From positions 1 to 64,000 of IMG/VR virus record IMGVR_UViG_3300045988_149282: 64,000 bases of DNA. One strand, 5' to 3'. The translations under genes were made by a program, and so were the position numbers. Below are positions 7,321-62,764 of this stretch, in pieces (position 1 is the first letter of the stretch; each line of letters starts with the position of its first letter). The notes beneath the pieces were generated by a model that saw nothing but the letters and a program-made list of their open reading frames with translations, did no database searches and was not told the origin of the DNA. Origin of the DNA: a virus. Lineage: Duplodnaviria > Heunggongvirae > Uroviricota > Caudoviricetes.

Positions 7321-7402
7321 AAACCTCTTTCCTTAGTGCCTTTTGTATGTTATTTGGCTATTATAATAAGTAAGTGATTACTTAGTGGATTGTAGCAATA
7401 AA

Positions 7403-8083
7403 ATGGACGTAAAAATCACGATTTTGCAGGTTGATGTTGCCAACCTTCGCCCGAATACCTGGAACACCAATTCGGTTGGTGCGCAGAATTTCGAAAAACT
7501 GAAAGGTTCTATCGAAAAATTGGGCTTTTTTAAGCCAATTTTGGCTCGTGAGCTTGAAGATGGATTTTTTGAAATCCTCGGCGGCGAACATCGCTGGCGT
7601 GCTGCTATTGAGCAAGGAATTTCAACGGTTCCTGTGCTTTCTGTGGGCAAAATTAGCGATGTCGTGGCAAAACAGATGTCACTGGTGGACAACGAGCGAT
7701 ACGGTGAAGACGACCAAATCGCATTGCAACGCTTCATTGAAGAAATTCAGTCAGAACTTGACTATCAACTGTCTGAAATCGCCCCGTATGACGACGAAAT
7801 CTCGATGGTTTTAGCAAAAGAGGCGGCAATCGACCTTGAAGCACTGGAGGCGTTGTCTCGTGGTAGTGATGAGCCTGTCGATACCGACAAACGAGAGAAA
7901 ACCGAACGTGTGGGTGCGGAACATCAGACCATGCGCTTCAAAGTAACTTTCGATGCGTCAGATCGTGTTGCAGAAACTATAAAAAACATCATCAAAGAGC
8001 AGGCTATTAACACCGGTAATGAAATGGAGAACGCTGGTGAGGCTCTGGTGTGGCTGGTCGACTACTACAAGGAGCGTATGTAA
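7403..8083 (+). CDS. ParB-like nuclease domain protein 1
   Basis: ParB/Srx N-terminal domain signature (...FEILGGEHRWRAAIEQGISTVPVL...); ORF track 7385 (GTG), first ATG at 7403. Confidence 0.75.
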   Translation: MDVKITILQVDVANLRPNTWNTNSVGAQNFEKLKGSIEKLGFFKPILARELEDGFFEILGGEHRWRAAIEQGISTVPVLSVGKISDVVAKQMSLVDNERYGEDDQIALQRFIEEIQSELDYQLSEIAPYDDEISMVLAKEAAIDLEALEALSRGSDEPVDTDKREKTERVGAEHQTMRFKVTFDASDRVAETIKNIIKEQAINTGNEMENAGEALVWLVDYYKERM

Positions 8084-8751
8084 TGACCAAAAAGTTTGAA
8101 ATCGTATATCGCGACCCGGCAGATCTTATTCCCTATGAGATGAATGCCAAAAAGCATGATGAACAGCAGATCAGAGATCTGGCCGCAGCCATTAAAAAGC
8201 GCGGATTTGACCAGCCAATTACGGTCGATAAGAACGACGTAATTATTACTGGCCACGGCCGCCGTGAGGCTGCAATTTTTGCTGGACTTGAGCGCGTACC
8301 GGTTATTGTTCGTGATGATCTGAGTGATGACGAGGTACGTGCAAAGCGCCTTGAAGATAACCGACTTGCCAGCATTGATTACGATGCAATTAAGCTACAG
8401 AAAGAGCTTGAGTCGCTTGTTCTGGACGATATCGAGGTTTTCGGCTTCGAAGAGCGTGAGTTGAATGTTCTCGTTGGCAGTATGACAGAAGAAATGGACA
8501 CCGACTCGCTAGTTATCGATCTTGGCGAAGAAACTAAACGACAGAAGGATGAACACACCGAGATCAGTCGTGAAGTTGCAGCGGAAGAAGTACGTGTTGT
8601 CGACGTATTGGGCTTTAAAACGCTTCCTGCTGGCTCTGCCATTGTTGTTGGTGATTTGCTTGCCCACATGGAAGAAATGACGGGAGAAAGCGGGGTAGAC
8701 GCATTTGTGGCATATGCGGAGAAGATCTCTTCCGGGGAGATGGCTGCATGA
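8083..8751 (+). CDS. ParB-like nuclease domain protein 2
   Basis: ParB box (VIITGHGRREAAIFAGLERVPVIV); start overlaps the upstream stop (TAATG) with AGGAG RBS; acidic C-terminal half. Confidence 0.75.
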   Translation: MTKKFEIVYRDPADLIPYEMNAKKHDEQQIRDLAAAIKKRGFDQPITVDKNDVIITGHGRREAAIFAGLERVPVIVRDDLSDDEVRAKRLEDNRLASIDYDAIKLQKELESLVLDDIEVFGFEERELNVLVGSMTEEMDTDSLVIDLGEETKRQKDEHTEISREVAAEEVRVVDVLGFKTLPAGSAIVVGDLLAHMEEMTGESGVDAFVAYAEKISSGEMAA

Positions 8752-9413
8752 GCAAATACATCATCAACGTATCGTTTCAGACACGCGTAAATAAAACCAC
8801 GCGCACGTTGGAAATCGCTGAGTCGTTCGGGCTTGGCCTGGACGAAAAAGAGTGGACGCTTTACGACAATCTGGAGCTGGAAGTGAAGCAGGGCGATGTG
8901 GTGTACATCACCGGCCAATCCGGTTCCGGCAAATCCGTTGTGCTGCGCGAGTTGCAACGACAGCTGAAGGATGAAGGGCTGTCTGTAGCCTCCATCGATG
9001 ATTTTACCTTCGATAATGAGGTTAACGTCATCGATCAGTTGGGCAAAACGACCAGCGATGCGCTTGGGTTGTTATCTATGGCTGGTCTGAACGATGCATA
9101 TCTGTTTGTTCGCAAGCCTTCTGAAATGTCAGACGGTCAGAAATATCGTCTCAAGATTGCCAAACTGATTGAGTCAGGCGCTAAAGTGTGGGCTGCTGAC
9201 GAGTTCGGTGCTGTTTTAGACCGTGTAACCGCTCAGGTTGTGGCATCTAACCTCCAGCGTGCCGCTCGAAAGGTTGGTGCGACGGTAATGGTGGCGACGA
9301 CTCACGAAGACCTGAAGAACGCGCTGCGCCCGGATATGCAGATCACCAAGCACTACAAAGAACGCGTGAAGGTGGAATATCACAATGGTAGTCATGATGA
9401 GGTCCATTCATGA
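8748..9413 (+). CDS. small ABC-type ATPase (P-loop NTPase)
   Basis: Walker A (GQSGSGKS), ABC-signature-like SDGQKYR, Walker B (VWAADEFGAVLD), H-loop-like TTHEDL; start overlaps upstream stop (ATGA). Confidence 0.65.
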   Translation: MSKYIINVSFQTRVNKTTRTLEIAESFGLGLDEKEWTLYDNLELEVKQGDVVYITGQSGSGKSVVLRELQRQLKDEGLSVASIDDFTFDNEVNVIDQLGKTTSDALGLLSMAGLNDAYLFVRKPSEMSDGQKYRLKIAKLIESGAKVWAADEFGAVLDRVTAQVVASNLQRAARKVGATVMVATTHEDLKNALRPDMQITKHYKERVKVEYHNGSHDEVHS

Positions 9414-10300
9414 CGGACATCATCATTAAACGCTACCGCCCTGAAGAGTTTCCGCGTCATCTGGACTTTCTGGAGCGAATGACTGTTACAAAGGGAACTG
9501 TAGAGGACTGGCACGCTCTTAAGTCGCTTCACTACAAAACAGACGGCAAACCTTTCGCGCCAACTTACTATCGCTGCGAACTTGATGACCGTCTGGTGGG
9601 CGTCGTGGTTATGGCTTACCCGAAACTACTGTTGGCACCTCGCCACCGCATGTTTCCTAAGTTGAAACCAACCACTAATACCACCGTGGCTAACCAGTAC
9701 TGGGGTCGGTACGTGAATAACAACTTTGCGGTGATCAGTCGCTCAGTTGTGGATACTCAGTATCGTGGCGTAGGCGTCTCTTATCGAATGATTAACCTGG
9801 TTAGCAGGATGCATGACCGGCCAATCATTGAGATCCAGTCATCGATGAGCAAATACAATCCCTTCGCCATGAAAGCAGGGTTCAAGTTCATCCGCCCTGA
9901 GCGACCGAAGAGCTATGAAAGTGCACTGCGTGTGTTCCAGCGCCATTTCCGTTCCGACCCGGGTGATAACGAGGCGATCGTCAAAGAGTTGTTCGCAATG
10001 AGCGAGTCTCGTCGTCGCCGTGCACTGCGTGATCTGGTGGCGGACTACCACAAGAACAGTTCCCTGGCAAAAGCTGGGCGGAATCGTGGCACGACGATTC
10101 AGGACATTGCCGACAGTCTGGTGGACGAGGCCAGCATTGTGAAGCTGCTCAAGGACATTCACAACCTGAGCTTTACGTCTCCGTTGTATGGTGTGTACCG
10201 AAACCCTGACTTTGGTCGTCGACTGCCTGACACGCTGCCACTGCTGGCATTCGACAAACAACCTTTGGATAAACCGTTAGAAATTGCTTTACCGGCATAA
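9410..10300 (+). CDS. hypothetical protein, possible GNAT-like acetyltransferase fold
   Basis: Translationally coupled (ATGA) to the ATPase; weak GNAT motif-A-like segment (QYRGVGVSYRMINLV). The fold assignment is tentative. Confidence 0.4.
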   Translation: MTDIIIKRYRPEEFPRHLDFLERMTVTKGTVEDWHALKSLHYKTDGKPFAPTYYRCELDDRLVGVVVMAYPKLLLAPRHRMFPKLKPTTNTTVANQYWGRYVNNNFAVISRSVVDTQYRGVGVSYRMINLVSRMHDRPIIEIQSSMSKYNPFAMKAGFKFIRPERPKSYESALRVFQRHFRSDPGDNEAIVKELFAMSESRRRRALRDLVADYHKNSSLAKAGRNRGTTIQDIADSLVDEASIVKLLKDIHNLSFTSPLYGVYRNPDFGRRLPDTLPLLAFDKQPLDKPLEIALPA

Positions 10301-10309
10301 GGATTTGCC

Positions 10310-10576
10310 ATGACGTTAACCGATAAACAAAAGGACATCATCAAAACGCTCAATCTCGGTTATGAGCGAGGTCATTTACTTGATCTGGACGAATTGCTTG
10401 AAGTTTTGCCGTACAAGACAACCAAGCAAAGTATCCAGTTCTCAATTCGCGCTCTGATAAAAAAGGGGCTGGTGGAGAAAGGGCATACGCGCCAACGCAG
10501 TGACAATCGCTATCACCGCCGAACTCTTGGGTTAACTACTTTAGGTCGAGCCAAAGCGAAGTTACTGGTGATGTAA
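10310..10576 (+). CDS. small basic protein, possible winged-helix DNA-binding protein (88 aa)
   Basis: ORF with AAGGA RBS; basic C-terminus; followed by the 55-bp palindrome at 10601-10655. Confidence 0.4.
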   Translation: MTLTDKQKDIIKTLNLGYERGHLLDLDELLEVLPYKTTKQSIQFSIRALIKKGLVEKGHTRQRSDNRYHRRTLGLTTLGRAKAKLLVM

Positions 10577-10600
10577 TCGGTCTGGGAGCTTATTTAAAGA

Positions 10601-10655
10601 CCTGCTTCTGTATATATAAATAATAAGTAACTTATTAAATATATACGGAAGCAGG
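10601..10655. repeat. 55-bp palindromic element, copy 1 (exact duplicate of 47001..47055)
   Basis: CCTGCTTCTGTATATATAAATAATAAGTAACTTATTAAATATATACGGAAGCAGG; near-perfect inverted repeat (one G-T position) centred on AATAAGTAACTTATT. Confidence 0.8.
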
Positions 10656-10690
10656 CTTCGTAAGACATGCCAGACCTAGTTAAACGCCCC

Positions 10691-10733
10691 AGAAAACAAG
10701 TTGGTTAGCAGAAGCAGTAAACAAGTTGTTTTA
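10691..10733 (+). promoter_or_regulatory. two copies of the conserved palindromic motif AGAAAACAAGTTGTT (candidate operator/promoter element)
   Basis: AGAAAACAAGTTGGTT (10691-10706) and TAAACAAGTTGTTTTA (10718-10733), ~40 nt upstream of the 10772 start; the same motif recurs at 1037-1052, 1087-1100, 1603-1616, 44991-45006, 47921-47936 and (degenerate) ~60528-60545. Confidence 0.5.
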
Positions 10734-10771
10734 GAGCGCATGGACGCGCTCTGTGTGTTTTAGAGGGATCT

Positions 10772-11404
10772 ATGACGGTCGAAAAAGACGAGGTAAAAAC
10801 TCGCCTGACACCAGCGGAGTGGGCCGAAGCTGAAGCCAAATGGACGTCAGGCGAATATACACTCTCAAAGCTGGAGGAAGAGTACGGCATTCGTCGTGAA
10901 ACACTCTCCAGACATTTCAAAAAGCGAGGATTAGAGAAAGGCGCGGACTCTGTTGGGAAGATGGTTCGTGAGTCTCTTAAATCTGACGCAGAGCTTCGCG
11001 CTAAAGCCCGTGCGGAAAAGATAGAAGAACGTCGTACACGTTATGACGGCTGGGCGTATGCGTTGGGGCAGATGGTGATGGTCGAAGTCACTACGGCCAA
11101 ACGTGAGAGTAAGCCTTTAGGGGCGATTGAGGATTCTCTCAAGAGCTTACAGAGAGCCAGTAATACCCTTGCAAAATGCTTTGAAGTTTCGTCCAAAGCA
11201 TTGGGCATGGATCATGCGGAAAATGACGAGGAAGAAATTCCGAACCTGGTATTTGGTGAGCTTACGCCTTCCCAGGTGGCGAAATTACGTCAGGAAGACG
11301 ACGAGCCTGAAATCATCGATGACGAATTGCTTGAGACGTTGGAAGAAGAAGCTCTAAGCGAATTTGATGCGACAGATGATGGAAGTGAAGGGGAGGACGA
11401 ATAA
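10772..11404 (+). CDS. terminase small subunit (candidate)
   Basis: Immediately upstream of and abutting the large terminase gene; HTH-like N-terminus and acidic C-terminal tail; positional inference. Confidence 0.55.
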   Translation: MTVEKDEVKTRLTPAEWAEAEAKWTSGEYTLSKLEEEYGIRRETLSRHFKKRGLEKGADSVGKMVRESLKSDAELRAKARAEKIEERRTRYDGWAYALGQMVMVEVTTAKRESKPLGAIEDSLKSLQRASNTLAKCFEVSSKALGMDHAENDEEEIPNLVFGELTPSQVAKLRQEDDEPEIIDDELLETLEEEALSEFDATDDGSEGEDE

Positions 11405-12660
11405 TGGCAATCCCGTCCTCGCTCAGTCTTGTGCAACTGCATTCTGGACAGATGAAAGTCTTCCAGTCTCCGCATCGATTTAAAGTTGTTTGTGCTGGTC
11501 GACGCTGGGGAAAATCCCGGTTGTCGATCTCCACTATTATTCGTGCGGCGGCAAAGGAAAAAAAGCAAAGGGTCTGGTATGTCGCTCCTACTTACCAGAT
11601 GGCTCGCCAGATTTTGTGGGACGATCTACAGGAAGTTCTGCCTCGTAAGTGGGTTAGGAAAAAGAACGACACCACGATGACAATCGTGTTGAAGAACGGT
11701 TCGGAGATCGCCCTCAAAGGTGCTGATAAGCCTGACACTCTGCGCGGCGTAGCGTTGCATTTTGTAGTGCTTGATGAATTTCAGGATATGAAGGCTGACA
11801 CCTGGTACAAGGTGTTACGACCTACTCTTTCATCGACACGCGGCGGTGCACTGATCATTGGTACGCCAAAAGGCTTCTCGGAATTTCACAAACTGTGGAC
11901 TATAGGCCAGAACGTAGAGCTGCAAAGAAAGGGACAGTGGAAGAGCTGGCAGTTTGTAACTGCCGATTCTCCGTTTGTGCCTACGGCGGAAATTGAAGCT
12001 GCTAAGAACGATATGGACCCCAAATCGTTCGCTCAGGAGTACCTGGCCAGCTTTGAGAACATGTCCGGGCGCGTTTACTACCCGTTCGATCGTAACGTGC
12101 ATGTAAAACCGCTTCAGTTCAACCCTCGGTTGCCTATATGGGTAGGGCAGGACTTCAACATTGACCCGATGTCTTCAGTAATTTTGCAACCTCAGCCAAA
12201 TGGTGAGCTATGGGCAATTGATGAATTGGTGCTCTTTTCCTCTAACACGGCAGAAGTTTGTGATGAGCTTGAGAGACGCTTCTGGCGCTGGAAATCACAG
12301 GTAACGGTATTTCCAGATCCGGCAGGTGCTTATCGCCAACATGCTCGTGGGGAGTCTGACGTAGACATATTCAAAGAGAAGGGATTCTTACGTGTCGATT
12401 ATTCGAAAAAGCACCCGCCAATTGCGGATCGTGTTAATGCTGTTAACCGAATGCTGATGTCCGCATCTGGAGATATCCGGCTGTATATCGATCCGAAGTG
12501 CAAGCATTTGATTGATTCACTGGAAAAAGTCATCTACAAGCCTGGAACACGAGATATGGATAAGACAGGTGGCATTGAGCATAGTGCAGACGCATTGGGC
12601 TATCCAGTACATCGTAGGTATCCAGTCAAAAACCGTGTTATTCTTGGTGGTTCTCGATAG
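11404..12660 (+). CDS. terminase large subunit
   Basis: Walker A-like CAGRRWGKS, Walker B-like VVLDEFQDM, C-terminal nuclease-like region; located before the portal gene. Confidence 0.85.
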   Translation: MAIPSSLSLVQLHSGQMKVFQSPHRFKVVCAGRRWGKSRLSISTIIRAAAKEKKQRVWYVAPTYQMARQILWDDLQEVLPRKWVRKKNDTTMTIVLKNGSEIALKGADKPDTLRGVALHFVVLDEFQDMKADTWYKVLRPTLSSTRGGALIIGTPKGFSEFHKLWTIGQNVELQRKGQWKSWQFVTADSPFVPTAEIEAAKNDMDPKSFAQEYLASFENMSGRVYYPFDRNVHVKPLQFNPRLPIWVGQDFNIDPMSSVILQPQPNGELWAIDELVLFSSNTAEVCDELERRFWRWKSQVTVFPDPAGAYRQHARGESDVDIFKEKGFLRVDYSKKHPPIADRVNAVNRMLMSASGDIRLYIDPKCKHLIDSLEKVIYKPGTRDMDKTGGIEHSADALGYPVHRRYPVKNRVILGGSR

Positions 12661-12686
12661 GTAAGTAGTTATCTAAGGTTATTCAA

Positions 12687-14261
12687 ATGGAATTGAACGA
12701 CAAACAAATTAAGGATCTGGTGGCGCGACGCCACCCGGAATACGAAAAGAAAAAAGAACATTGGGACTTCCTCGCCAGCACTTACGCTGGCGGGCGTGGT
12801 TGGTTTACAGACAATATCTTTCGTTACTTTAAAGAGGGAGATCAGGAGTTTAAGGAGCGAGTTGAACGTGCTTATCGCTTCAACCACACTCGTGAGGTGG
12901 TAAACCTCATCAACAAATATCTCTTTAAAGAAGACATTCATAGAAATATCGAAGAGGCACCAGAGCAGATCCGCAATTTCTGGAAACGTGCGACTCGCCA
13001 GAATGCCTCTATTGACTCATTTATGGCCGCTATTGATTTGCAGTCGTCTATTTACGGTCGCATATGGGTTGTTGTCGATAGCACGATGAGTGGTGATGTT
13101 GAGTCAGTAGCTGACGAGAAAAAGAAAGATGCTCGCGCCTACGCCTACTGGATTTCACCTCAGCAAATGCTGGATGTGGCATGGGACGACGACGGGAATA
13201 TGTTGTGGGCGTTAATTGTGGAAGTCGCTCGTGATGACGCAGATCCTTTTACTTCTACAGGTCAGGAATACCAACGTTATCGTCTGTGGACACAAAACGA
13301 GTGGTATCTGTTCCGTGAGGAAGTGAAGAAGGGCGCTGGTGGAGCAGGTCGCCGTCAGGCAAAAGTTATTTTAGAGGATAGCGGTGAGCATAATCTCGGC
13401 GTAGTTCCTGTGTTTCCTGTTGATTGTATTGGAGAAAGTGAATCACCGTATTTCAGCCCATCGTTGATCGATGATATCGCTTATCTTGATCGTGCGGTTG
13501 CAAACTATCTGTCAAACCTTGATGCCATTATTCAGGATCAGACATTTAGCCAGTTGGCTATACCGGTACAGTCGCTTTTACCTGGTGATGAAAACCACAC
13601 TAAAGTGCTTGAAATGGGCACAAAGCGAGTCTTCACCTACGATTCTGAAGGTGGAAACCAGCCGTTTTATCTGTCACCAGACCCGAAACAAGCTCAGATG
13701 ATCATCACTACGATTAAGACGGTGATTAACGAAATCTACCATTCAGTTGGTGTAGCTGGTGAGCGAACGAAGCAGGACAACGCACAGGGAATCGATAATT
13801 CATCTGGTGCCGCAAAAATGTATGACTTCCAGCGTGTAAATAGCTTGCTTGTCACAAAAGCAGAGCGTCTGGAAAGGGCTGAACGCCAAATCATGCTACT
13901 GGTTGCGAAATGGATGGGGGTAGATCTGGACGAAGACCACTCTTTAATTGCGTATCCAGAAAGTTTCGATATTCGTGGCCTTACTGATGAATTTTCTGTT
14001 GCCGAGAAACTGTCATTACTTCAGGCACCGGACTCTGTACGTCGTCACCAGATGGAAATGCTTATTGAGAAGATTTTCCCGAACATTACTGAGGCGATGA
14101 AAAAGGAATTTGATAAAGATCTCTTGAATTTTCCTCCAAAAAATGATCTAAATACCCTTGAAAATAAGTCAGTACTTACTTATGATCGTGGTGCAGCCCA
14201 AGAAAGCGGGCAAGATCAACCCCGAGGGAATGGGGACTCATCTACTCAAGAGAACGAGTGA
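12687..14261 (+). CDS. portal protein
   Basis: 524-aa ORF directly after the terminase with an acidic C-terminus; canonical position and size. Confidence 0.75.
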   Translation: MELNDKQIKDLVARRHPEYEKKKEHWDFLASTYAGGRGWFTDNIFRYFKEGDQEFKERVERAYRFNHTREVVNLINKYLFKEDIHRNIEEAPEQIRNFWKRATRQNASIDSFMAAIDLQSSIYGRIWVVVDSTMSGDVESVADEKKKDARAYAYWISPQQMLDVAWDDDGNMLWALIVEVARDDADPFTSTGQEYQRYRLWTQNEWYLFREEVKKGAGGAGRRQAKVILEDSGEHNLGVVPVFPVDCIGESESPYFSPSLIDDIAYLDRAVANYLSNLDAIIQDQTFSQLAIPVQSLLPGDENHTKVLEMGTKRVFTYDSEGGNQPFYLSPDPKQAQMIITTIKTVINEIYHSVGVAGERTKQDNAQGIDNSSGAAKMYDFQRVNSLLVTKAERLERAERQIMLLVAKWMGVDLDEDHSLIAYPESFDIRGLTDEFSVAEKLSLLQAPDSVRRHQMEMLIEKIFPNITEAMKKEFDKDLLNFPPKNDLNTLENKSVLTYDRGAAQESGQDQPRGNGDSSTQENE

Positions 14262-14282
14262 TAAGTAACAAAAGGAATTTTT

Positions 14283-16071: not shown

Positions 16072-16104
16072 TCAGTGTTGTAGATAAGTAATTATCTATG
16101 TTTA

Positions 16105-41952: not shown

Positions 41953-42042
41953 TTCAATTCGTATGTAAGTGCTTACCTACAATTAGTTTCTAATTTATGA
42001 TATAAATCTGCCATCCGATTTGACTTATTCATGGAGGAAGAC

Positions 42043-47055: not shown

Positions 47056-47171
47056 TCTTTTAAAAGACACCACCAGAACAACTCCCTTCCGTTTCCACTT
47101 CCAAAAACTGCCACCAGTCGCTATCATCCGCTCATTGTGATAAGTAAGTAACTACCTACCAGGTGAGCCAC

Positions 47172-50559: not shown

Positions 50560-50634
50560 CAATCACCTTTAAAATAAGTAGATGATTACTTATCTTTCTG
50601 TGAGAATACTTTCATCTGTTAGCTAGGAGTTGGT

Positions 50635-51417: not shown

Positions 51418-51472
51418 TCTCTCCGCGCGTCGTTTTTTACGCAAATAACGATAGGTAAGTACAAGATTATTT

Positions 51473-54094: not shown

Positions 54095-54116
54095 GATAAG
54101 TATTTACTTACTTATC
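54095..54116 (+). promoter_or_regulatory. TAAGTA-type hairpin motif (GATAAGTATTTACTTACTTATC) at the head of the tRNA/ncRNA region
   Basis: Inverted repeat GATAAGTA / TACTTATC followed by a T-rich tract, at the start of the ~780-bp noncoding stretch preceding the tRNAs. Confidence 0.4.
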
Positions 54117-55030: not shown

Positions 55031-55034
55031 AATT

Positions 55035-55491: not shown

Positions 55492-55628
55492 GACACAGCG
55501 TTGAGCGGTTTGGCCTTTTAATCAACCAGATTAAGACTCCGCTAACATAAACCAGACCGCTCAACGCTGTGATAGACAATTACGGCAGACGTTCTTAACC
55601 ATAGCTTGCTAACATCCTAGCAACACTT

Positions 55629-55657
55629 TTTTCAGCGCAAAATTCAAAGGGGCTTCG
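55629..55657. repeat. 29-bp direct repeat, left copy, flanking the lipoprotein cassette
   Basis: TTTTCAGCGCAAAATTCAAAGGGGCTTCG; 27/29 identical to 56550..56578. Confidence 0.65.
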
Positions 55658-55669
55658 GCCCCTTTTTTG
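55647..55669 (+). terminator. Rho-independent terminator after the tRNA cluster
   Basis: AAGGGGC-TTCG-GCCCCTT hairpin followed by TTTTTT; also forms the left copy of the 29-bp direct repeat flanking the lipoprotein gene. Confidence 0.65.
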
Positions 55670-55784
55670 ATTTGTTGACACTTAGTTATATTCACGTATC
55701 GTTTTATCGCTTTGATCCGAGGCAGCGTTAGACTGCCTTCATGTTCCTGATTAGATCGCAGCAGTTAAACATGGAGACAAATTA

Positions 55785-56339: not shown

Positions 56340-56549
56340 TGACAGGGGCGTATACGCCCCTATCTAAAATTTGACATTAAACATATATTGCATCTGGTAT
56401 CAGCAATTTTTGTGCGCTATGTAAGTCCTTACCTGCAATCAGTCTCATAAATATCGGATTTTACGTAGCGTACCATCGTTACAGCAAGCATCAAATTATT
56501 CACTGACATTTATGCGCTGAAAACAGCGTTACTTACCGTAAAATAACAA

Positions 56550-56578
56550 TTTTCAGCGCAAAATTTAAAGAGGCTTCG
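56550..56578. repeat. 29-bp direct repeat, right copy, flanking the lipoprotein cassette
   Basis: TTTTCAGCGCAAAATTTAAAGAGGCTTCG; degenerate copy of the terminator-containing left repeat. Confidence 0.65.
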
Positions 56579-56590
56579 AATCTGCACAAC

Positions 56591-57919
56591 CTATTGTGCG
56601 TACTCGCCCAATTTTAATGTTTCACGCTTATATTCATCAACTATCTCACATGATTTAATATAGATATGGCACAATAGGTTATCACTATCATCATTATCGT
56701 TTATTGCCATAAGTGCCAACTTTTTCTCATATTCATCGATCGCATCACTCAACTGATCACCTGTAATTACATCTGACTCACTCGAGAAATATAACTGCCC
56801 AAGATTTACCGCATTTTTTCCAGTTTTTCTTTGCTCTATGTAATTTTTAATCATATCCTTCACATCCTTTTCACTACTCAGTATTTCACTTTCGAAATGG
56901 ACATGCTCTGAAATCGACGCGACTCTGCAACCGATCAAACGATGAATATAGTCATCAATAGACGTAACACTATCATTAGCTTTTTTTAGTGCTTCATCAA
57001 AAATGCTCTTTACCTCATTTGGCAAATTTTTAAAATAATCATCAATTAAACCAGATAATGGTGTTTGGTAGTTCATTAATACCGATGAAGCAACTTGCGG
57101 ACGACGAGCCACCCAGATTTCTTTGACTTCAACTTGAGAATAATATTCCTTAATCACGTTCCAAAAGTATTTTAACATCTTGGTTTTAAATATTTTATCA
57201 AATCTATCCTTTATAAATAGCTCTACTTCAGGCATGCTTGAATAAGCATCATCAAAGAATATTTCATCTTTGAAAAAATCATATTTATTTAATAAAGCAT
57301 ACAGTTTTTTTGAATCCAGCGGTTCACGAGAATCGATGTCCAATCCAAAAACTGCAATAACCAACTTCATTTGCGGTGGTATTTTTCCACTCAATTGAAT
57401 AATATATTCCATTTTTTCATCAAAACAATTTCCATCTATGTAAAATCGGTTATCTACATAGACTAATATATTGGTAATATGTTTTATGTACTGAATAACC
57501 TCATGCTTTCTTACCAATGGATAAAAAAACGAATGCATTTCATTTTTATTAAATTGTTTTTTTGTCTGTTCAATGATTGGTATGACATTATTGTACAACT
57601 CATCATGCTGATTTAATAAAGTGTCAAACCATTCTTTGAAAGAATTTTTTCTCATCTCAATCAATGAATCGGTAGTTATCCTAACGGCCTCCAGTGCTGC
57701 CTTTGCACTTTTTCTTGCTTCATAGGCGTTCCACGCTGTTGCACAAAAAGCCGCTGTCGTTATAAAACTACTCAATACAGCAATTTGGTCTGTAACCTTC
57801 CAATCTTGAAATGGCTCAAGTAGTAAACCTAAAAACAAAATTATTATGGAAAACATTAGAATTGCAACAGAAATAAAAACAGGCATGTATGCTCTCGTAC
57901 TTACCATTGTTAGTTGCAT
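56591..57919 (-). CDS. membrane-anchored protein (442 aa; two N-terminal TM helices plus large cytoplasmic domain), accessory gene
   Basis: AT-rich minus-strand ORF; TM helices VFISVAILMFSIIILFLGLLL and IAVLSSFITTAAFCATAW; GATAGGTAAGTA-type motif on the minus strand upstream (57981-58002). Confidence 0.6.
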   Translation of the reverse strand: MQLTMVSTRAYMPVFISVAILMFSIIILFLGLLLEPFQDWKVTDQIAVLSSFITTAAFCATAWNAYEARKSAKAALEAVRITTDSLIEMRKNSFKEWFDTLLNQHDELYNNVIPIIEQTKKQFNKNEMHSFFYPLVRKHEVIQYIKHITNILVYVDNRFYIDGNCFDEKMEYIIQLSGKIPPQMKLVIAVFGLDIDSREPLDSKKLYALLNKYDFFKDEIFFDDAYSSMPEVELFIKDRFDKIFKTKMLKYFWNVIKEYYSQVEVKEIWVARRPQVASSVLMNYQTPLSGLIDDYFKNLPNEVKSIFDEALKKANDSVTSIDDYIHRLIGCRVASISEHVHFESEILSSEKDVKDMIKNYIEQRKTGKNAVNLGQLYFSSESDVITGDQLSDAIDEYEKKLALMAINDNDDSDNLLCHIYIKSCEIVDEYKRETLKLGEYAQ

Positions 57920-58058
57920 TAAATATTAACTAAATTAAGTTGTGATTAACAGGCAAGTTTACGATGTATTGCAGACATTAAATAGGTTTTTACTTACCTA
58001 TCTTTTATAGTAATATTTATTTTCTGGTTAAGTAACACATAATTATTATGAGGTAAAC

Positions 58059-58304
58059 ATGACTATCGTTATCTACGGACGAGATAACTGCTCATATTGC
58101 AAACGTGCGGTCGAGCTGGCGAAACAACTAAAGGGACACGGCTATGGTGATTATGAGTACATCGACATCACCACTGCCGGTATCGATAAGGAAAAACTTA
58201 GCGAAATTGTTGGCAAACCGGTAGAGACTATCCCCCAGGTACTGATCGATGGCCAACCGATTGGCGGATACACAGAACTGGCTGCATACGTCACCACTCT
58301 CTAA
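58059..58304 (+). CDS. glutaredoxin (NrdH/Grx-like thioredoxin fold)
   Basis: 81-aa protein with CSYC active site near the N-terminus and glutaredoxin-like TIPQVLIDGQPIGG motif; hairpin plus T-run terminator follows. Confidence 0.8.
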   Translation: MTIVIYGRDNCSYCKRAVELAKQLKGHGYGDYEYIDITTAGIDKEKLSEIVGKPVETIPQVLIDGQPIGGYTELAAYVTTL

Positions 58305-58309
58305 TTTTA

Positions 58310-58333
58310 ACGGCTCACAGGAGCCGTTTTTGT
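58310..58333 (+). terminator. Rho-independent terminator after the glutaredoxin gene
   Basis: ACGGCTC-ACAGG-AGCCGT hairpin followed by TTTTTG. Confidence 0.6.
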
Positions 58334-58514
58334 TCCCACCAAACTCACGCTTGGTTCCCTTAAAATTCAAAAAACAACGGCTAAATGATTCCATACCTAC
58401 TATGTATGGAATCATTACTGAAAATGAGTTACTTTTACTCTTGATCCTATAAGAATCTATGCCTAATATACTGTTTACTTATACAGTGAATCGGCGTAAC
58501 TCGGTGATTGTCAT

Positions 58515-59618
58515 ATGAAAAATAGCTTTGACAGAGCACGCGCTGCGGAGAACACCTCAAAAGAGGCGATTGAGTATCTCGAAAGAGCATCTCAAATGCA
58601 GGCCGTTATGATCTCGCAGGTCAGCAATGACATGAGATTCTCGGACGCATTCATGTTATTCACTCGCTTATCTCTGCTGATAACAAGACGTCGGCCAGAG
58701 ATCGCTGTTCATTGTATTTTGATACATGTTTTGCCGCACATTGCCGATGTAAAAGTAAGTGACATTAATAGGTTCATGGTGAACCAACTGGTCAACCCAC
58801 TAATACTGGATGGCAAAATTGTTATGGGCCGCCGCGTTTTCTCTCTGATGAAGCAGTTCCTTAGCTGGTGCGCCTTCCAGGGGATGATAGACGTGTCACC
58901 GTTAAACGATATGTCACTAAACAAAGTTGCCGGTGGCGCAAAGCCTACACCTCGCGAGCGGAAGCTGACCGACGCAGAGGTATGGGTGTTCTGGAATATA
59001 TGGGACTACTTCAATGTGTGCGCTGGTACAAAATGGGCGGCCAGGCTGTGTCTTGTATCCGCAAGACGACCTGACGAAGTACTGCGGGCTAAAAAAAGTG
59101 AGTTCAATCTTAAGCGTGGGGTTTGGAATCAAGGCAAGAGGAACAAATCTGCCCGTGAGCATTCTCTGCCTTTAAGCTCATTAATGCGCACTTGTATTGA
59201 AGAGTTGTTCGAATATGGTAAAGACAGCCAGTGGCTCGTGCCTTCGAATAAAAAAATCGGGAAAGACCTTCCTATGTCTAAAGTGGCAATAGCCCAGGCA
59301 TTACGTCGTATTCTGGAACGACCAGAACTGATGGAGCTTGAGCCATTTACACCCCGAGATTTGCGCCGTACTGCGCGTAGTTACTTCCCAGCATTAGGCA
59401 TAAGCCAGGAGGTATCACGTAAAATCATGAACCACAGTCTTGAGGGGATAGATCGGGTCTACGACCGGCACGATTATATGGACGAGATGCGAGACGCCTT
59501 AGAAAGTTTCTCGACGTACATCGCATCAATCGTAGAGCAACCGGATTTAGACGAAATTGACCACAAATTTAAGGGAGATCGTCTATCAACAGAGCTTATT
59601 CGTGTAAATTTTTCATAG
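58515..59618 (+). CDS. tyrosine recombinase (phage integrase family)
   Basis: Catalytic-domain motifs: ARLCLVSARRPDEV (box I Arg), FTPRDLRRTARSY (H/RxxR region), RVYDRHDY (putative catalytic Tyr). N-terminal start uncertain. Confidence 0.75.
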   Translation: MKNSFDRARAAENTSKEAIEYLERASQMQAVMISQVSNDMRFSDAFMLFTRLSLLITRRRPEIAVHCILIHVLPHIADVKVSDINRFMVNQLVNPLILDGKIVMGRRVFSLMKQFLSWCAFQGMIDVSPLNDMSLNKVAGGAKPTPRERKLTDAEVWVFWNIWDYFNVCAGTKWAARLCLVSARRPDEVLRAKKSEFNLKRGVWNQGKRNKSAREHSLPLSSLMRTCIEELFEYGKDSQWLVPSNKKIGKDLPMSKVAIAQALRRILERPELMELEPFTPRDLRRTARSYFPALGISQEVSRKIMNHSLEGIDRVYDRHDYMDEMRDALESFSTYIASIVEQPDLDEIDHKFKGDRLSTELIRVNFS

Positions 59619-59999
59619 AGACTTTATGGCCTCAACAACCTTTTGTGATGCGCCTTTCTCTTTACCGAATCGCTCGTTATATGCAGCAAGAACCTGTTTT
59701 TCGTCCTCGTTAAGAGGAGCAGTGCCTTCTTTGTATAAAAATGCTGCGAGTTCGGGTTGGCGTTCTTCCAGCACCATCATCATAAGACGACTTGGCTCAA
59801 TGCCCAGTGCCAGCGCCAGCGGACGAACCTTATCGATAGGCAAAGGAATTTTGCCGCTTTTAATTAAAGAAAGGTTGTTGGCGTTTTTATACCCAATTGT
59901 TTTGGCTATCTGGGCCTGGCTCATAGGTGAGGATTCAATCAACCCTGCGATAAAAGCAGCATAGCGACTTTCTATAAATTCAATCTTGTTGTCAGACAT
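59613..59999 (-). CDS. XRE-family helix-turn-helix transcriptional regulator
   Basis: HTH_XRE-like segment (SQAQIAKTIGYKNANNLSLIKSGK); convergent with, and overlapping by a few nt, the recombinase gene end. Confidence 0.7.
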   Translation of the reverse strand: MSDNKIEFIESRYAAFIAGLIESSPMSQAQIAKTIGYKNANNLSLIKSGKIPLPIDKVRPLALALGIEPSRLMMMVLEERQPELAAFLYKEGTAPLNEDEKQVLAAYNERFGKEKGASQKVVEAIKSL

Positions 60000-60249
60000 T
60001 GTTACAACCTTTGCGCGTTCAATTCTCTCTGGTAAGTGCTTACCGATATTACATCAAAGGTTAGGGTTGTAAAGCTATTATCATTTTTTCGATAGGCACT
60101 TAAAAGACCGGTTAAAGGCCATTGCACGGAGAAAAATTGGCCCAAAACAGGTAAGAAAATTAACTTGCATATGATATGAATGTATTCAGTATTGATATAA
60201 ATTTTAGTAGTATTCCTTACCATAGTATAAGTTAGAATGGATTGATTGA

Positions 60250-60462
60250 ATGAACACCACTATTTCCAGCCTAATCGCTCTTGAGATCGGACACGTACAG
60301 AAATTAGCTGATGAGTGTGTAGCTGACATCCTCACCGATCTACCGAATGAGCAGATTCAGGTTGGTGTGAATGACACAACTGGCTTTATATTCGAACTTA
60401 ACAACAAACGCTTCACGCTTCTCAATATCGGCTCCGGGTCTTTAGCCGTCAGAATCTGTTAA
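60250..60462 (+). CDS. hypothetical small protein (70 aa)
   Basis: ORF only; weak support. Confidence 0.3.
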   Translation: MNTTISSLIALEIGHVQKLADECVADILTDLPNEQIQVGVNDTTGFIFELNNKRFTLLNIGSGSLAVRIC

Positions 60463-60560
60463 CCCCTCTTCTCCCTGCGCGAATGGCTTAGTTCCCTGTT
60501 CGCGCAGTGCTACATTAAACACACTAGTAAATAATTTGTTTTCATAACAAAGGATTAGCC

Positions 60561-62669
60561 ATGTCTAAAAAACGTTCCATCAAAGAGGTTCAGGACTTCC
60601 GTGACAGTGTAAAACGAGTAGTCGCTCTCCTTTCAGGTAAAAACATCCCTGTTGCAGAACGAGGGGACGACGCTTATGTACGCTATAACGATGATGGAGA
60701 GCCAATTCTCGTAAACATCCCATCAATCCCGGATAACGCAACACCGGCATTGATGAATGCTGTGCGCGGATTTCTCGATCATGAGGTTGCTCACATTTTG
60801 TTTACCGATATTCGTGTGTCCAACAAAATGAGAGAAAAAGGACGCGTTCCTTCCTGGTCGCTATGGAATGCCTTAGAAGACGTGTTCATCGAGCGAAAAA
60901 TGGGTCAGGTCTTTAACGGAACAAGACGTAATCTGATGGCAACTCAGCGCCTTATAATCGAAAAAGTCTTTAAACCAAAGGCTTCAGAGGCTATTGCTTA
61001 TTGTGGCAAAGATCAGCGCGCGCTTTTTCTAAACTTCTTTCTCTGTCCGGTTGTAAGAGCCTGGGATGGCCAAGCACCGTTCGTAGATTTCATGGATGAA
61101 TACTGGCCTGTCATTGAGAAACCAATTTCATTATTAAAAGAACATGGTATCGATGTGGCCGTGCGTAACATGTCTTGCACCGAGGATTGTGTAAAGGTGG
61201 CTGCGACCATAGCTAAGATCCTCAAAGACACTGAAAGTGAAAGCAAAGGTAAGGAGTCAGCTCCGGGAAAAACTTCCGATCCTTCAGACGCTGACCAGAC
61301 GGATGCCTCTGGAGAAAACAATGAAGACAACGAAGATCATGAGACACCCTCATCGTTAGATAATCACAAATCTATCGAATCAGAATCACATAGTAAGCAC
61401 AAACATGATAATAACGACAGCGATGATTCAGATAATTCTGAATCATCAGAAACAATATTCGATGATACAGAAAATGATAAAGAGGTATCAGATTCTGATG
61501 CTTCTGATAACGCGGCGTCAGAATCATTAACCGCTGACCACGAAAAAAGAAAAACGACAGAAGACGGCTCTTCAGATATCCCAACTCCGTCAAAAATGAG
61601 TCTGGAAGAGGCTTTAGAGGAGCTGGATAGCATAGAAGATGAAGTCGGAGGCATGACAGAAGATGCTCTATCCGAAACGATTAAAAGCGAGTTAACAGAA
61701 AGCTCGAAAAGCGAATACAGGCCATACAATCGCTCATACGACTTCATCGGCTCGATTGATCAGGCAGAAGCCCATATCAAACGGCTTATTAAAACATTCT
61801 CCGATATTGATTTGGGAGGATATCCAATCAGCCGCTATCGCATCGTTCCTGAAGGCAACCAGCTCTTCGACAAATATATTGAAAAGCATCTTTCGTCAGG
61901 TGTTTCGTCGACGCTGGCAAAAGACCTGGAGCGAGCAATAGCAAGCAGAAACAGAGTTCAGTTTATACCGGGCCAGCGTCGGGGGCGCATTCATGGTTCT
62001 AGTATCTACAGATTAGCAATGAATGATGCTCGCGTGTTTCGTAAAAAAGAAGAATCTAAAGCCGTTAACGCCTGTGTTCAACAAGTGATTGATTTATCAG
62101 GTTCAATGAGTGGTATAACGATTAAACTGGCTCTTGCAAGTGCATATACCATCGCCGATGCCCTTGATCGAATAAATGTTCCCAACATTATCACCGGCTT
62201 CACTACATTTGGTAGTCATATGGCGGCAGGAGAACTTAAGGCTGTCAAGTATGAGTTCTCTCGCTTTGAATCTTTAATGCTACCTATCATCAAAAATTGG
62301 AATGAAAAGGTAAATTCTCGCGAAGTTCGCTCACGTATGGGGTGCGTAGGCTACACATTCCCACTTCTTAATAACGTGGATGGTGAAAGCATAGCCAGCC
62401 TTGCATCGTTATTTTCCGGTCGCTTGGAGGACAGGAAGATCATGCTTGTTCTGAGTGATGGCGCGCCGTGGGCTGTTGGGAGAGGTTTTGACGCTCATTT
62501 GCGTTCAGTTGCGAAGCAAATTGAAACGCAGACTGATATTGATTTGATGGCAATTGGCATCATGACTGACGCACCGGAGAGATTTTACTCAAATCATGCC
62601 CTGGTAACGAGCGTTGATAGTCTTGGTTCATCTGTAGTTACTGAACTATCTCGTATCATTTTAAAGTGA
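60561..62669 (+). CDS. von Willebrand factor A (vWA) domain protein, CobT-like, with long acidic Ser/Asp/Glu-rich linker
   Basis: C-terminal vWA MIDAS motif (VIDLSGSMSG), N-terminal HEVAH segment, central ~150-aa acidic low-complexity region; paired with the downstream AAA+ gene. Confidence 0.7.
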   Translation: MSKKRSIKEVQDFRDSVKRVVALLSGKNIPVAERGDDAYVRYNDDGEPILVNIPSIPDNATPALMNAVRGFLDHEVAHILFTDIRVSNKMREKGRVPSWSLWNALEDVFIERKMGQVFNGTRRNLMATQRLIIEKVFKPKASEAIAYCGKDQRALFLNFFLCPVVRAWDGQAPFVDFMDEYWPVIEKPISLLKEHGIDVAVRNMSCTEDCVKVAATIAKILKDTESESKGKESAPGKTSDPSDADQTDASGENNEDNEDHETPSSLDNHKSIESESHSKHKHDNNDSDDSDNSESSETIFDDTENDKEVSDSDASDNAASESLTADHEKRKTTEDGSSDIPTPSKMSLEEALEELDSIEDEVGGMTEDALSETIKSELTESSKSEYRPYNRSYDFIGSIDQAEAHIKRLIKTFSDIDLGGYPISRYRIVPEGNQLFDKYIEKHLSSGVSSTLAKDLERAIASRNRVQFIPGQRRGRIHGSSIYRLAMNDARVFRKKEESKAVNACVQQVIDLSGSMSGITIKLALASAYTIADALDRINVPNIITGFTTFGSHMAAGELKAVKYEFSRFESLMLPIIKNWNEKVNSREVRSRMGCVGYTFPLLNNVDGESIASLASLFSGRLEDRKIMLVLSDGAPWAVGRGFDAHLRSVAKQIETQTDIDLMAIGIMTDAPERFYSNHALVTSVDSLGSSVVTELSRIILK

Positions 62670-62764
62670 ACAAAACAGCCTTAATGATAAGTTACTACTT
62701 ACGATAGATGATGATATATTTATATAAGAAGTTGAACGCTCATTAGAGAACAAAGGAAAAACGC

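Follow-up and report, generated by a model that had tools for sequence, protein, structure and literature searches.

One of the closest described counterparts of the repeats analysed here is the C1 operator family of phage P1, in which one repressor-type site is scattered over a phage-plasmid genome of about 100 kb and overlaps or abuts the σ70 promoters of many operons, the regulator's own region included (Oref, Omat, Ossb and Olpa are examples from the annotation). The operators of 434, lambda and P22, to which Cro/CI helix-turn-helix dimers of the XRE family bind, are 14-18-bp palindromes with short half-sites; they cluster at two loci, with a site at the repressor's own promoter and a divergent immunity region beside a small gene. 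KorB of the IncP plasmid RK2 belongs to the ParB family; its targets, about a dozen palindromes (OB), are spread over the plasmid, and it acts as a global repressor of promoters near and far. ParB and KorB sites are near-perfect palindromes of 13-16 bp with little degeneracy, OB itself being a nearly invariant 13-bp one. Finally, Lpa of P1 switches on promoters that are otherwise inactive, for which it requires an inverted repeat of 9 bp at -22, separated from the -10 hexamer by exactly 4 nt.

The DNA considered here (the window) comprises 64,000 nucleotides of an SSU5-like phage-plasmid with about 98% identity to Escherichia phage Cyrano, and was compared with Cyrano, SSU5, Klebsiella pJN2-26 and Acinetobacter baumannii NZ_CP035046. 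Its TAAGTA-core repeats resemble C1 operators in their dispersal and promoter overlap, but the P1 sites are asymmetric 17-mers bound by C1, whereas those of the window are palindromes of phased pentamers with a candidate XRE-type binder and also occur inside the late operon. They share size, symmetry and a place at a repressor's own promoter, in a divergent region beside a small gene, with the lambdoid operators, and the candidate protein's model has the same five-helix HTH fold; unlike lambdoid operators they are dispersed (about 16 copies per 64 kb, 25-30 per genome), with half-sites in tandem at a 4-bp phase so that several binding registers overlap. As in RK2, promoter distance varies and ParB-like proteins are encoded in the same DNA, but the window sites are degenerate. 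The Lpa box has a similar inverted-repeat core, AAGT(G/T)ACTT against AAGTACTT; here, however, no Lpa homologue was found, the distance to the -10 hexamer is not fixed, and placement suggests repression. On sequence grounds we infer that the repeats are probably a dispersed operator family bound by a phage-plasmid repressor, likely of XRE type, and repressing the operons that carry them. They are neither terminators nor autonomous promoters. We found no description of the motif in the searchable literature; the SSU5-like family of phage-plasmids is very common, and TAAGT/ACTTA operators would give a first handle on its switching.

Distribution and architecture of the repeats

The original prediction placed TAAGTA-based hairpins in at least 12 intergenic regions. 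Every sequence it quoted is present at its position, and the recurrence at gene junctions stands, but the count rises to about 16, one of them within the portal gene. TAAGTA occurs 44 times in the whole window against 18.8±4.8 in shuffles, none of 100 reaching 44. Non-coding DNA makes up 10.7% of the window and has 27 of these copies (binomial p ~6e-16). TAAGTA is the most intergenic-enriched hexamer here and also in Cyrano (48/73), SSU5 (41/59) and Klebsiella pJN2-26 (55/79; p 3e-32). Searches with GATARGTAAGTA, allowing up to two mismatches, found 24 sites where 5.7 were expected, and TARRT-N4-AYYTA has 12 intergenic matches for an expectation of 0.22.

Might such counts simply reflect AT-rich, stop-codon-rich intergenic sequence, or a series of weak intrinsic terminators? 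TAAGTAA does contain stop codons in two frames, with copies overlapping real stops at 14259-14269 and 15164-15170, and T-rich tails follow three sites (50575, 54097 and 57979). Markov shuffles of the intergenic DNA only (41% GC), however, yielded 5.3±2.4 copies (maximum 16 in 500) against the 27 observed, and TAAGTA is therefore not a by-product of AT-richness. Strictly quantised spacing, conservation of orthologous sites, replacement of the whole set in the Acinetobacter lineage, and short AT-rich stems adjoined by genuine GC-rich terminators likewise speak against this reading, which we regard as highly improbable.

Two pentamers in inverted orientation, TARRT-N4-AYYTA (14 bp), form the unit; this 5-4-5 arrangement is found in 13 of the 14 strong window sites and is often extended by pentamers in 4-bp phase into palindromes of 18 and 22 bp such as TAGGTAAGTACTTACCTA. 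Because the extra pentamers are in phase, apparent spacings are limited to 0, 4 or 8: exact TAAGT..ACTTA pairs in the intergenic DNA of three genomes number 12, 20 and 8 at these spacings and zero at every other, save spacing 1 in the 55-bp palindromes. The asymmetric spacer GATT/AATC is found in both orientations before plus-strand genes. This architecture is typical of what a dimeric DNA binder would recognise; since spacing 8 accounts for nearly as many sites as spacing 4, the 5-4-5 half-site geometry is provisional. The 55-bp palindromes (10601-10655 and 47001-47055) had been said to contain the same core. They do contain the pentamers, as TAAGT-A-ACTTA, but their spacing of 1 breaks the rule, which makes them appear distinct from the family. 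Another set of dispersed palindromes, AAACAAnTTGTTT, sits upstream of parA.

The sites are as follows (promoters are predictions; sites marked "new" were missed originally).

535..548: TAAGTACTTACCTA (GTAAGTACTTAC at 535), new, upstream of the range first covered; directly after an intrinsic terminator; at -32..-19 of TTGTAA-17-TAGTAT, whose -35/17-nt spacer/-10 geometry is kept (-10 TAGTAT in Klebsiella, TAATAT in SSU5, TAGAAT in Cyrano)
7367..7384: TAAGTAAGTGATTACTTA, divergent region between UvsW-like helicase (-) and ParB (+); overlaps core promoter elements both ways (-4..+14 and -31..-14); SSU5 and Klebsiella keep a site without indel, five substitutions in the window having shifted ACTTA by 4 nt
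12658..12675: TAGGTAAGTAGTTATCTA, TerL/portal junction, ATG 11 nt downstream; TAGGTAAGTGCTTACCTA in SSU5, TAAGTAAGTACTTACCTA in Klebsiella
14165..14182: TAAGTCAGTACTTACTTA, within the portal gene 3' end; fills the spacer of TTGAAA-17-TATGAT, the strongest σ70 match over the first 20 kb; no nucleotide of the site differs in SSU5, Klebsiella or Cyrano
16081..16098: TAGATAAGTAATTATCTA, between the major capsid gene and an Ig-like gene, then a strong terminator hairpin (16101-16127, -18.5 kcal/mol against -6.4 for the site); a perfect TAGGTAAGTACTTACCTA at the orthologous Klebsiella position
19660..19673: TAAGTATATACTTA, before the tail-tube gene; overlaps TTGAAT-18-TATACT; the hairpin that follows varies in sequence and keeps its pairing in SSU5 and Klebsiella
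26118..26139: TAGATAAGTAATCACTTATCTA, 22-bp palindrome separating minor tail genes M and L; preserved in every relative, beside a conserved TATTAT
41966..41979: TAAGTGCTTACCTA (tight palindrome GTAAGTGCTTAC), new, preceding the holin gene; occupies -42..-29 of a conserved TGATATAAAT box
47141..47158: TAAGTAAGTAACTACCTA, ahead of the gene that opens the replication module; at +8..+25 of a promoter with a -10 (TATCAT/TATGAT) that SSU5 and Klebsiella preserve
50575..50592: TAAGTAGATGATTACTTA, before gene 50635-51417; kept with a TGT-(G/A)AGAAT extended -10 in SSU5 and Cyrano, TGTAATAAT in Klebsiella; flanks unalignable, protein N-terminus only 33-41% identical
51452..51465 (+): TAGGTAAGTACAAG, one-sided, before gene 51473-51955; right arm degenerate (GATTA) in every relative
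54097..54114: TAAGTATTTACTTACTTA, upstream of an ORF-free stretch and tRNA cluster; covers -41..-24 of TTTACT-17-TAAGAT; conserved in SSU5, Klebsiella and Cyrano
56421..56432: tight palindrome GTAAGTCCTTAC, new, in region 56340-56590; flank similar to the one at the holin site (TATGTAAGTnCTTACCTnCAAT)
57979..58000: TAAATAGGTTTTTACTTACCTA, divergent region before the glutaredoxin gene; covers -45..-24 of TTTACT-17-AATATT
60031..60044: palindrome GGTAAGTGCTTACC, new, over the promoter start of the repressor gene; at -7..+7 of TTTACA-16-TAATAT directed towards 59999; TTTACA-16-TAATAT-C-GGTAAGTACTTACC kept in Klebsiella; weaker half-sites at 60091-60102 and 60213-60233
62688..62701: TAAGTTACTACTTA, between cobT-like and cobS-like genes; covers -39..-26 of TTACTA-17-TATATT preceded by TG; kept in SSU5 and Klebsiella

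Placement relative to promoters and transcripts

The sites had been said to lie 15-80 nt upstream of a gene, which holds only approximately (5-14, 11, 18, 38-63 and 100 nt, with no ORF downstream of 54097); several do lie where nothing upstream needs terminating, as claimed. Relative to predicted σ70-type promoters they range from -45 to +25 (for example -32..-19, -28..-11, -7..+7, +8..+25 and -42..-29), these promoters being matches at 8-11 of 12 positions of a kind common by chance in AT-rich DNA; several of those overlapped are conserved in relatives. TAAGT/ACTTA itself resembles a weak -35. Thus the association with promoters that had been proposed is borne out, but not as autonomous or activator-type elements: palindromic form, spacers in both orientations and variable promoter position, with no fixed distance to the -10 box across 72 sites, are the pattern of operators overlapping promoters.

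On this basis, a single sequence-specific regulator encoded by the phage-plasmid probably binds operators in early and late modules as well as in those for replication and accessory functions. At most sites the overlap with a putative promoter involves its -35, spacer, -10 or start region, so that a bound dimer would block host RNA polymerase and, in the plasmid (lysogenic) state, silence the operons; once the regulator is lost, the site-bearing operons would be released jointly, and the site over the repressor's own promoter start could provide negative autoregulation. Some placements argue against operators: neither 12658 nor 16081 has a plausible promoter according to our predictions, and a number of late sites have a stop codon on one side and a terminator-like hairpin on the other, where an operator would not be expected. 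Late-operon sites that lack a recognisable promoter may prevent read-through or indicate weak internal promoters.

Alternatively, the palindromes could serve middle or late promoters as activator boxes, in the manner of Lpa. The AAGT|ACTT centre of the 18-bp sites is close to the P1 sequence, the centres of 14165 and 26118 fall 9.5 nt before a -10-like hexamer (about -21.5), genes that follow a site are silent in the lysogen, and the window is poor in canonical σ70 promoters (14 against 27.5 and 19 against 36). However, the variable -10 distance does not fit, the best tblastn match to Lpa has an E-value of 0.29, 47141 and 60031 lie downstream of predicted starts, 535 and 14165 lie between -35 and -10, one site covers the promoter start of a gene expressed in the lysogen, and terminators separate some late sites from the next gene. 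We consider activator boxes unlikely.

Could the elements instead act in RNA? Folds of the sites range from -0.1 to -9.2 kcal/mol, against -12 to -18.5 for real terminators of the window, in agreement with the earlier view that they are not terminators alone. A phage RNA-binding protein or nuclease might recognise them, either as short hairpins or as single-stranded words, and so affect the stability, processing or translation of polycistronic transcripts: about half begin within 20 nt of an upstream stop codon (29/55), and several stand just before a ribosome-binding site or terminator hairpin. One candidate is the FljA-like protein at 4185-4709 (full-length, Pfam PF03614, E 5e-81, with a weak Hfq-like C-terminal match), which is present in all enterobacterial relatives and whose Salmonella homologue represses fliC mRNA translation. 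Against this, 5 of 16 sites are essentially unfolded as RNA (-2 kcal/mol or weaker); 535 with its orthologues, like SSU5 39088, is placed after a terminator but ahead of the next predicted start and should therefore not be transcribed; palindromic symmetry and orientation-independent spacers suit recognition of double-stranded DNA; the Acinetobacter element has the architecture without an FljA-like gene; and that gene is absent from the lysogen-expressed genes in Table 1 of PMC9928086. An RNA-level role thus appears quite improbable.

Conservation across relatives

For 13 window sites SSU5 and/or Klebsiella has an orthologous intergenic region, and in every case a site is kept there, even where flanks and neighbouring proteins have diverged; the repressor-promoter site is kept in Klebsiella only because SSU5 lacks that region. 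In A. baumannii NZ_CP035046 the same architecture appears with TCAGT/ACTGA in place of TAAGT/ACTTA (ACTGACT 37/43 intergenic, p 2e-28; spacings 0/4/8 in 20/34/22 pairs), a switch of the whole set which argues that the motif co-evolves with a trans-acting factor. Since more than 25 non-homologous sites per genome share one word and the set switches together, what is conserved is sequence rather than pairing. The sites are not structural hairpins, and the suggestion of regulatory hairpins is not supported.

Candidate regulators

One gene stands out as encoding a candidate cognate regulator.

59613..59999 (-): 128-aa XRE/Cro-CI-type helix-turn-helix protein, Cyrano CYRAN_45 'putative repressor'

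Its product matches PHROG_8 (E 1e-11) and, weakly, Pfam HTH_19; the modelled five-helix domain is nearest to C.AhdI, the lambda and 434 repressors and HigA. Homologues occur in 865 plasmids, Acinetobacter relatives included, and it is among only a few DNA-binding candidates common to the window and the Acinetobacter element. A site covers the gene's promoter start, in Klebsiella too, and we infer that its product is most likely the binder of the TAAGT/ACTTA sites. In the LF82 lysogen the gene is expressed about 10-fold above background (PMC9928086). The lysogen RNA-seq does not discriminate, because nearly all lytic genes are silent, site or no site, and CYRAN_34, which has a site, is 4-5-fold above background (PMC9928086).

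SSU5 lacks the repressor gene (a deletion of about 3 kb), yet has 24 intact sites against 24-25 in relatives, so the gene may have been lost recently, or else the sites serve another protein. Such a protein might be found in the ParB-like pair (7403-8083 and 8050-8751), acting like KorB. The pair is conserved in every motif-bearing lineage, SSU5 and the Acinetobacter element (38% and 47% identity) included, site 7367-7384 is directly upstream of its operon, and highly varied promoter distances, with some sites lacking a promoter, would fit a binder of this type. ParB and KorB targets, however, do not show the degeneracy and multiple registers of the TAAGTA sites, and AAACAAnTTGTTT is an equally good ParB target; we think this explanation has a small chance of being correct.

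As to the XRE-type repressor, a Klebsiella allele that is only 48% identical, and still accompanied by TAAGTA sites, retains the recognition helix NANN(L/I)SLIKSG. In an Asn-to-Arg covariation across two lineages only, the Acinetobacter protein has KR in place of KN at the helix N-cap, parallel to the A-to-C change in the half-site.

Statistics, anatomy and conservation of the palindromes

The hexamer TAAGTA occurs 44 times in the window, compared with 18.8±4.8 times in dinucleotide shuffles, and 27 of the 44 copies are intergenic, the strongest intergenic bias of all hexamers (p ~6e-16; the intergenic fraction, 10.7% of the window, was set with a hand-made gene map). Because intergenic DNA is AT-richer, we shuffled it on its own as a further control. 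TAAGTA then appears 5.3±2.4 times (at most 16 in 500 shuffles) versus the 27 copies observed, so that the TAAGTA-core family described in the original prediction is indeed non-random in intergenic DNA; every sequence quoted there was also found where it had been reported. The same hexamer heads the intergenic ranking in Cyrano (48 of 73 copies), SSU5 (41/59) and the Klebsiella phage pJN2-26 (55/79, p 3e-32), for all of which gene maps and the comparison were taken from annotated genomes.

Exact TAAGT...ACTTA pairs in the intergenic DNA of three genomes have spacings of 0, 4 and 8 (12, 20 and 8 pairs, respectively); the only other spacing found there is 1, which belongs to a set of 55-bp palindromes. 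In a position-frequency matrix anchored on TAAGT, TA recurs every 4 bp over four periods, implying that the arms are short tandem arrays of 4-bp-phased pentamers (TAAGT, TAGGT, TAGAT). Allowing for this degeneracy, TARRT/AYYTA at spacing 4 has 12 intergenic matches in the window versus 0.22 expected, and 13-15 at spacing 8. Among the strong sites, N4 fits 13/14 and N8 10/14, each being ~55-fold enriched. The simplest description of these sequences would be a 14-bp 5-4-5 core to which further in-phase pentamers may be added, and the variable loop originally ascribed to the family dissolves into a register effect of the phasing. The asymmetric spacer GATT is found before plus-strand genes in both orientations (7371 and 50579 versus 26122), which argues against a directional element.

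We count 16 sites in total, 15 intergenic regions plus one coding site in the portal gene. The earlier figure of at least 12 was too low; the present count includes three tight palindromes missed before and, in addition, the site in the portal gene. Relatives have 24-25 exact 5-4-5 matches per genome. Searching one genome per species for the exact 18-mer TAGGTAAGTACTTACCTA yielded 4 loci, approximately chance level, one of them on a Kluyvera SSU5-like contig, and no sign of a host regulon.

By megablast, the window belongs to the SSU5 group of phage-plasmids, with 98-99% identity to Escherichia phage CMS-2020a and Cyrano (pLF82) and ~80% identity over conserved genes to Salmonella phage SSU5. 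Where an orthologous intergenic region exists in SSU5 and/or the Klebsiella element, the site is kept in 13/13 cases; for the site at the repressor promoter that region exists in Klebsiella only, SSU5 being without it. The Klebsiella version is often the perfect 18-mer. At 50575, the site and an extended -10 box are kept despite unalignable flanks and a downstream protein whose N-terminus is only 33-41% identical, and at 7367, where the genomes align without an indel, five substitutions within 11 nt have shifted the right arm by exactly 4 nt.

The distant Acinetobacter baumannii relative, a 107-kb plasmid carrying replication, recombination and structural genes of the SSU5 type, uses a different word. 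Its intergenic regions are dominated by AGTCAGT/ACTGACT (37/43 copies intergenic, p 2e-28) in sites resembling TATAGTCAGTACTGACTGAT, and spacings 0/4/8 account for 20/34/22 pairs versus 0-3 at other spacings. With the same spacing rule and TAAGT replaced by TCAGT, the architecture is old and the recognised base has changed. A lineage-specific word of this kind looks like the joint evolution of a cis site and a trans-acting factor that reads its sequence, and such a switch is unlike a purely structural element or hairpin, as which the family had also been read.

Placement over predicted promoters

As RNA, the sites form AT-rich hairpins of -0.1 to -9.2 kcal/mol, five of them essentially unfolded, compared with -12 to -18.5 kcal/mol for terminators in the window; the stable GC-rich stem-loop of an intrinsic terminator is not found. 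Neither is a U-run typical: at 13/16 sites the 8 nt that follow contain no more than 4 T or lack a contiguous run, T-rich tails being confined to 50575, 54097 and 57979. Both features agree with the earlier claim that these are not terminators alone. Terminators do occur nearby. The site at 535 and its orthologues, like SSU5 39088, are positioned between a terminator and the next predicted start, and several late-operon sites are flanked by a stop codon on one side and a terminator-like hairpin on the other; overall, our crude detection placed terminators both before and after sites in no consistent order.

Using σ70-type predictions at modest stringency (at least 8/12 matches), 13/16 sites overlap a predicted promoter, which in four cases is conserved in relatives; a consensus promoter scan matched only two sites. 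No promoter was predicted at 12658 or 16081.

Placement of sites relative to predicted promoter elements
535: between -35 and -10 (TTGTAA-17-TAGTAT)
14165: between -35 and -10 (TTGAAA-17-TATGAT, the top promoter match of the first 20 kb)
60031 and 7367: covering the predicted start
47141: downstream of the predicted start, after a conserved TATCAT/TATGAT
41966, 54097, 57979 and 62688: over or upstream of -35

Three relatives with differing -10 hexamers retain the -35/-10 geometry seen at 535, and Klebsiella retains the promoter at 60031. No preferred distance to a downstream TAnnnT emerged from 72 sites; the sole peak starts within the right arm (37/72 sites) and is probably part of the motif itself. 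Repressor operators, unlike activator boxes, typically occupy varying positions over core promoter elements in this way. Of the original alternatives, promoters or regulatory hairpins, the association with (predicted) promoters is supported and the hairpin, given the weak folds, is not.

As a separate observation, canonical σ70 matches reach only about half the shuffled number (14 versus 27.5±6.3 in 1-20000, 19 versus 36±6.6 in 40001-60000), as if such promoters had been selected against in these two stretches.

The family is a real and conserved set of palindromes associated with predicted promoters, and most probably represents the dispersed operator of a phage-plasmid repressor. Systems of this type are already known. 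In logic, the nearest analogue is the set of P1 C1 operators, which are likewise dispersed over a phage-plasmid genome; here, too, many copies lie in intergenic regions of separate operons. The C1 operator is asymmetric and 17 bp long. The putative operator described here is symmetric, and is therefore not a C1 operator in sequence; in form it resembles the palindromic operators of the 434/lambda type. The Lpa-dependent late promoters of P1 carry AAGT(G/T)ACTT at -22, strikingly like the centre of the 18-mers. Despite the similar box we rejected this analogy for want of an Lpa homologue (best tblastn hit for gp10 E 0.29 across the window, Cyrano, SSU5 and the Klebsiella relative) and of a fixed geometry. 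The P1 box is a 9-bp inverted repeat, AAGTNACTT, centred at -22 and 4 nt before the -10 hexamer; the core here is AAGT/ACTT, with pentamer spacings of 0, 4 or 8 and positions from -45 to +25. We found no description of the motif, either of this instance or of its 4-bp-phased multi-register form, in the searchable literature, and the sole paper found on Cyrano names a 'putative repressor' and no operator (PMC9928086).

Candidate binding proteins

Genes for candidate binders and a neighbour
59613-59999, minus strand: 128-aa XRE/Cro-CI-type protein, CYRAN_45 (PHROG_8, E 1e-11; weak Pfam HTH_19)
60250-60462, plus strand: 70-aa protein, divergent from the repressor gene, CYRAN_46 (PHROG_2627)
7403-8083: ParB-family protein (PHROG_723, E 1e-78)
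8050-8751: ParB-family protein (PHROG_930, E 1e-112)
4185-4709, minus strand: full-length FljA homologue (Pfam PF03614, E 5e-81), C-terminus weakly Hfq-like

Which protein might read these sites? We infer that it is most likely the XRE-type repressor. Its single-sequence model (pLDDT 75) contains a five-helix HTH domain whose nearest folds, all XRE-type and all weak (E 0.04-0.4), are controller proteins, the lambda and 434 repressors and HigA; a sequence search of the PDB returned no match. The gene has a site at its own predicted promoter, with GGTAAGTGCTTACC occupying -7 to +7 of TTTACA-16-TAATAT, an arrangement conserved in Klebsiella, and more half-sites lie in the divergent region towards 60250. 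In the LF82 lysogen it is expressed ~10-fold above background and has been named putative master repressor (PMC9928086).

Comparison across lineages narrows the field. The Acinetobacter element encodes homologues of only 44 of the 122 Cyrano proteins, and the DNA-binding candidates among them are the XRE repressor, both ParB-like proteins, the small terminase subunit and an 88-aa protein encoded at 10310-10576. A Klebsiella plasmid whose repressor allele is 48% identical retains the recognition helix (NANNISLIKSG versus NANNLSLIKSG), and its top intergenic hexamer is still TAAGTA. The Acinetobacter homologue reads KRPNVLSMIKSG, with Asn changed to Arg at the helix N-cap. Asn usually prefers adenine and Arg guanine, so that this replacement matches the A:T to C:G change in the half-site. 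A further homologue, from Thauera, is in a conjugative plasmid and is uninformative.

One observation speaks against the XRE repressor: SSU5 is without the integrase/repressor segment, yet its intact sites are as numerous as those of its relatives. A serious alternative is that the ParB-like proteins bind the sites in the fashion of KorB; these proteins are conserved throughout the lineages, the repressor-less SSU5 included. For ParB or KorB a near-invariant palindrome would be expected, whereas the sites here are degenerate. A version of this idea, which we regard as improbable, has the phased pentamer arrays serving as loading or nucleation sites for both ParB-like proteins and not as simple repressor operators, with a KorB-like clamp keeping the plasmid form's entire lytic genome silent from ~30 dispersed sites, some at gene ends before terminators. 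If true, such 4-bp-phased repeats in overlapping registers would constitute a centromere-like site of a new kind, used for genome-wide phage silencing. The RNA-seq table for the LF82 lysogen does not separate repression from lack of activation.

The FljA-like protein was rejected as a binder: it is absent from the Acinetobacter element, which has the same motif architecture, its own promoter has no clear site, and its gene does not figure among those expressed in the lysogen. Universal in enterobacterial relatives, the protein occurs in 831 enterobacterial SSU5-like plasmids and is absent in Acinetobacter relatives. FljA is the Salmonella repressor of phase-1 flagellin, and the homologue might let the element silence host flagellin.

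If the sites are indeed operators of the XRE repressor, the operator word with its ~16 mapped positions constitutes a candidate regulon and predicts which operons are switched together. This matters because SSU5-like phage-plasmids are very common and their lysis/lysogeny control is essentially uncharacterised. Homologues of the repressor are present on 865 plasmids in PLSDB, from Klebsiella, Escherichia, Enterobacter, Salmonella (pHCM2-like), Yersinia pestis (pMT1-like) and Acinetobacter. The natural specificity variant (TAAGT versus TCAGT, Asn versus Arg) offers a test of the recognition code, and the sites could be targets to engineer or cure SSU5-like plasmids.

Two observations concern the repressor region itself. 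In SSU5, a ~3-kb segment (integrase, repressor and small divergent gene) is missing at ~42600-42760 and is present in its closest plasmid relatives (~93% identical); its loss may explain the lytic-phage behaviour of SSU5. The divergent gene 60250-60462 rises from ~4.3 to 10.8 log2 units inside macrophages in the LF82 data (PMC9928086), which fits a Cro-like or anti-repressor early gene.

Genome organisation and other elements

Accessory genes come first in the window, then a ParB-like operon and the late operon, which extends from terS at 10772 as far as lysis genes at ~43400. These are followed by parA, the replication module, a tRNA cluster and the integrase/repressor region, and cobT/cobS-like genes end the window.

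Further features of the window
28292-40456, plus strand: single 4054-aa ORF, central tail-fibre (J-like) protein plus long fibre region
56591-57919, minus strand: 442-aa gene in a 34% GC island (window average ~47%)
10601-10655 and 47001-47055: two identical perfect 55-bp palindromes, CCTGCTTCTGTATATATAAATAATAAGTAACTTATTAAATATATACGGAAGCAGG, both flanks T-rich
1465-1551, intergenic: 2.9 tandem copies of a 30-bp GC-rich unit, CACCCACCTGTTCCCGTCCGGCTACCGAAG
54115-54860: ~750 nt from the putative promoter/operator at 54097 to the first tRNA, without a long plus-strand ORF
41999-42007 and 60194-60202: two copies of GATATAAAT

The tail-fibre ORF is likewise fused in pJN2-26 (12,138 nt) and split into two genes in Cyrano and SSU5. 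The 442-aa gene is missing at that position in Cyrano and is likely a recently acquired accessory or defence gene.

The 55-bp palindromes, whose centre TAAGT-A-ACTTA has spacing 1 and falls outside the 0/4/8 rule, have 2-3 relatives in each related genome, at module borders; they may be terminators acting in both directions, an origin, or a site of packaging or recombination. The 13-bp cores of another dispersed palindrome family, (G)AAAACAAnTTGTTT(A), are at 1038, 1605, 10694, 10719, 44994 and 47924, as a rule only a few nt ahead of a ribosome-binding site, that of parA included. With six copies in the window, 13 in SSU5, 11 in the Klebsiella relative and only one in the Acinetobacter element, this second family is probably the site of another regulator or of the partition protein. 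The GC-rich tandem units look like iterons or protein-binding repeats.

Cyrano, SSU5 and the Klebsiella relative all conserve the start (TGTTTTCGTTGAGACGCGACTGTTTGAAC) of the region 54115-54860, which is possibly a leader or an undescribed non-coding RNA; Rfam found four tRNAs only in 54000-56600. Finally, GATATAAAT is kept ahead of the holin gene in every relative and also stands before the small gene beside the repressor and, in the Klebsiella relative, before uvsY; it resembles the late-promoter box of phage T4, TATAAATA.
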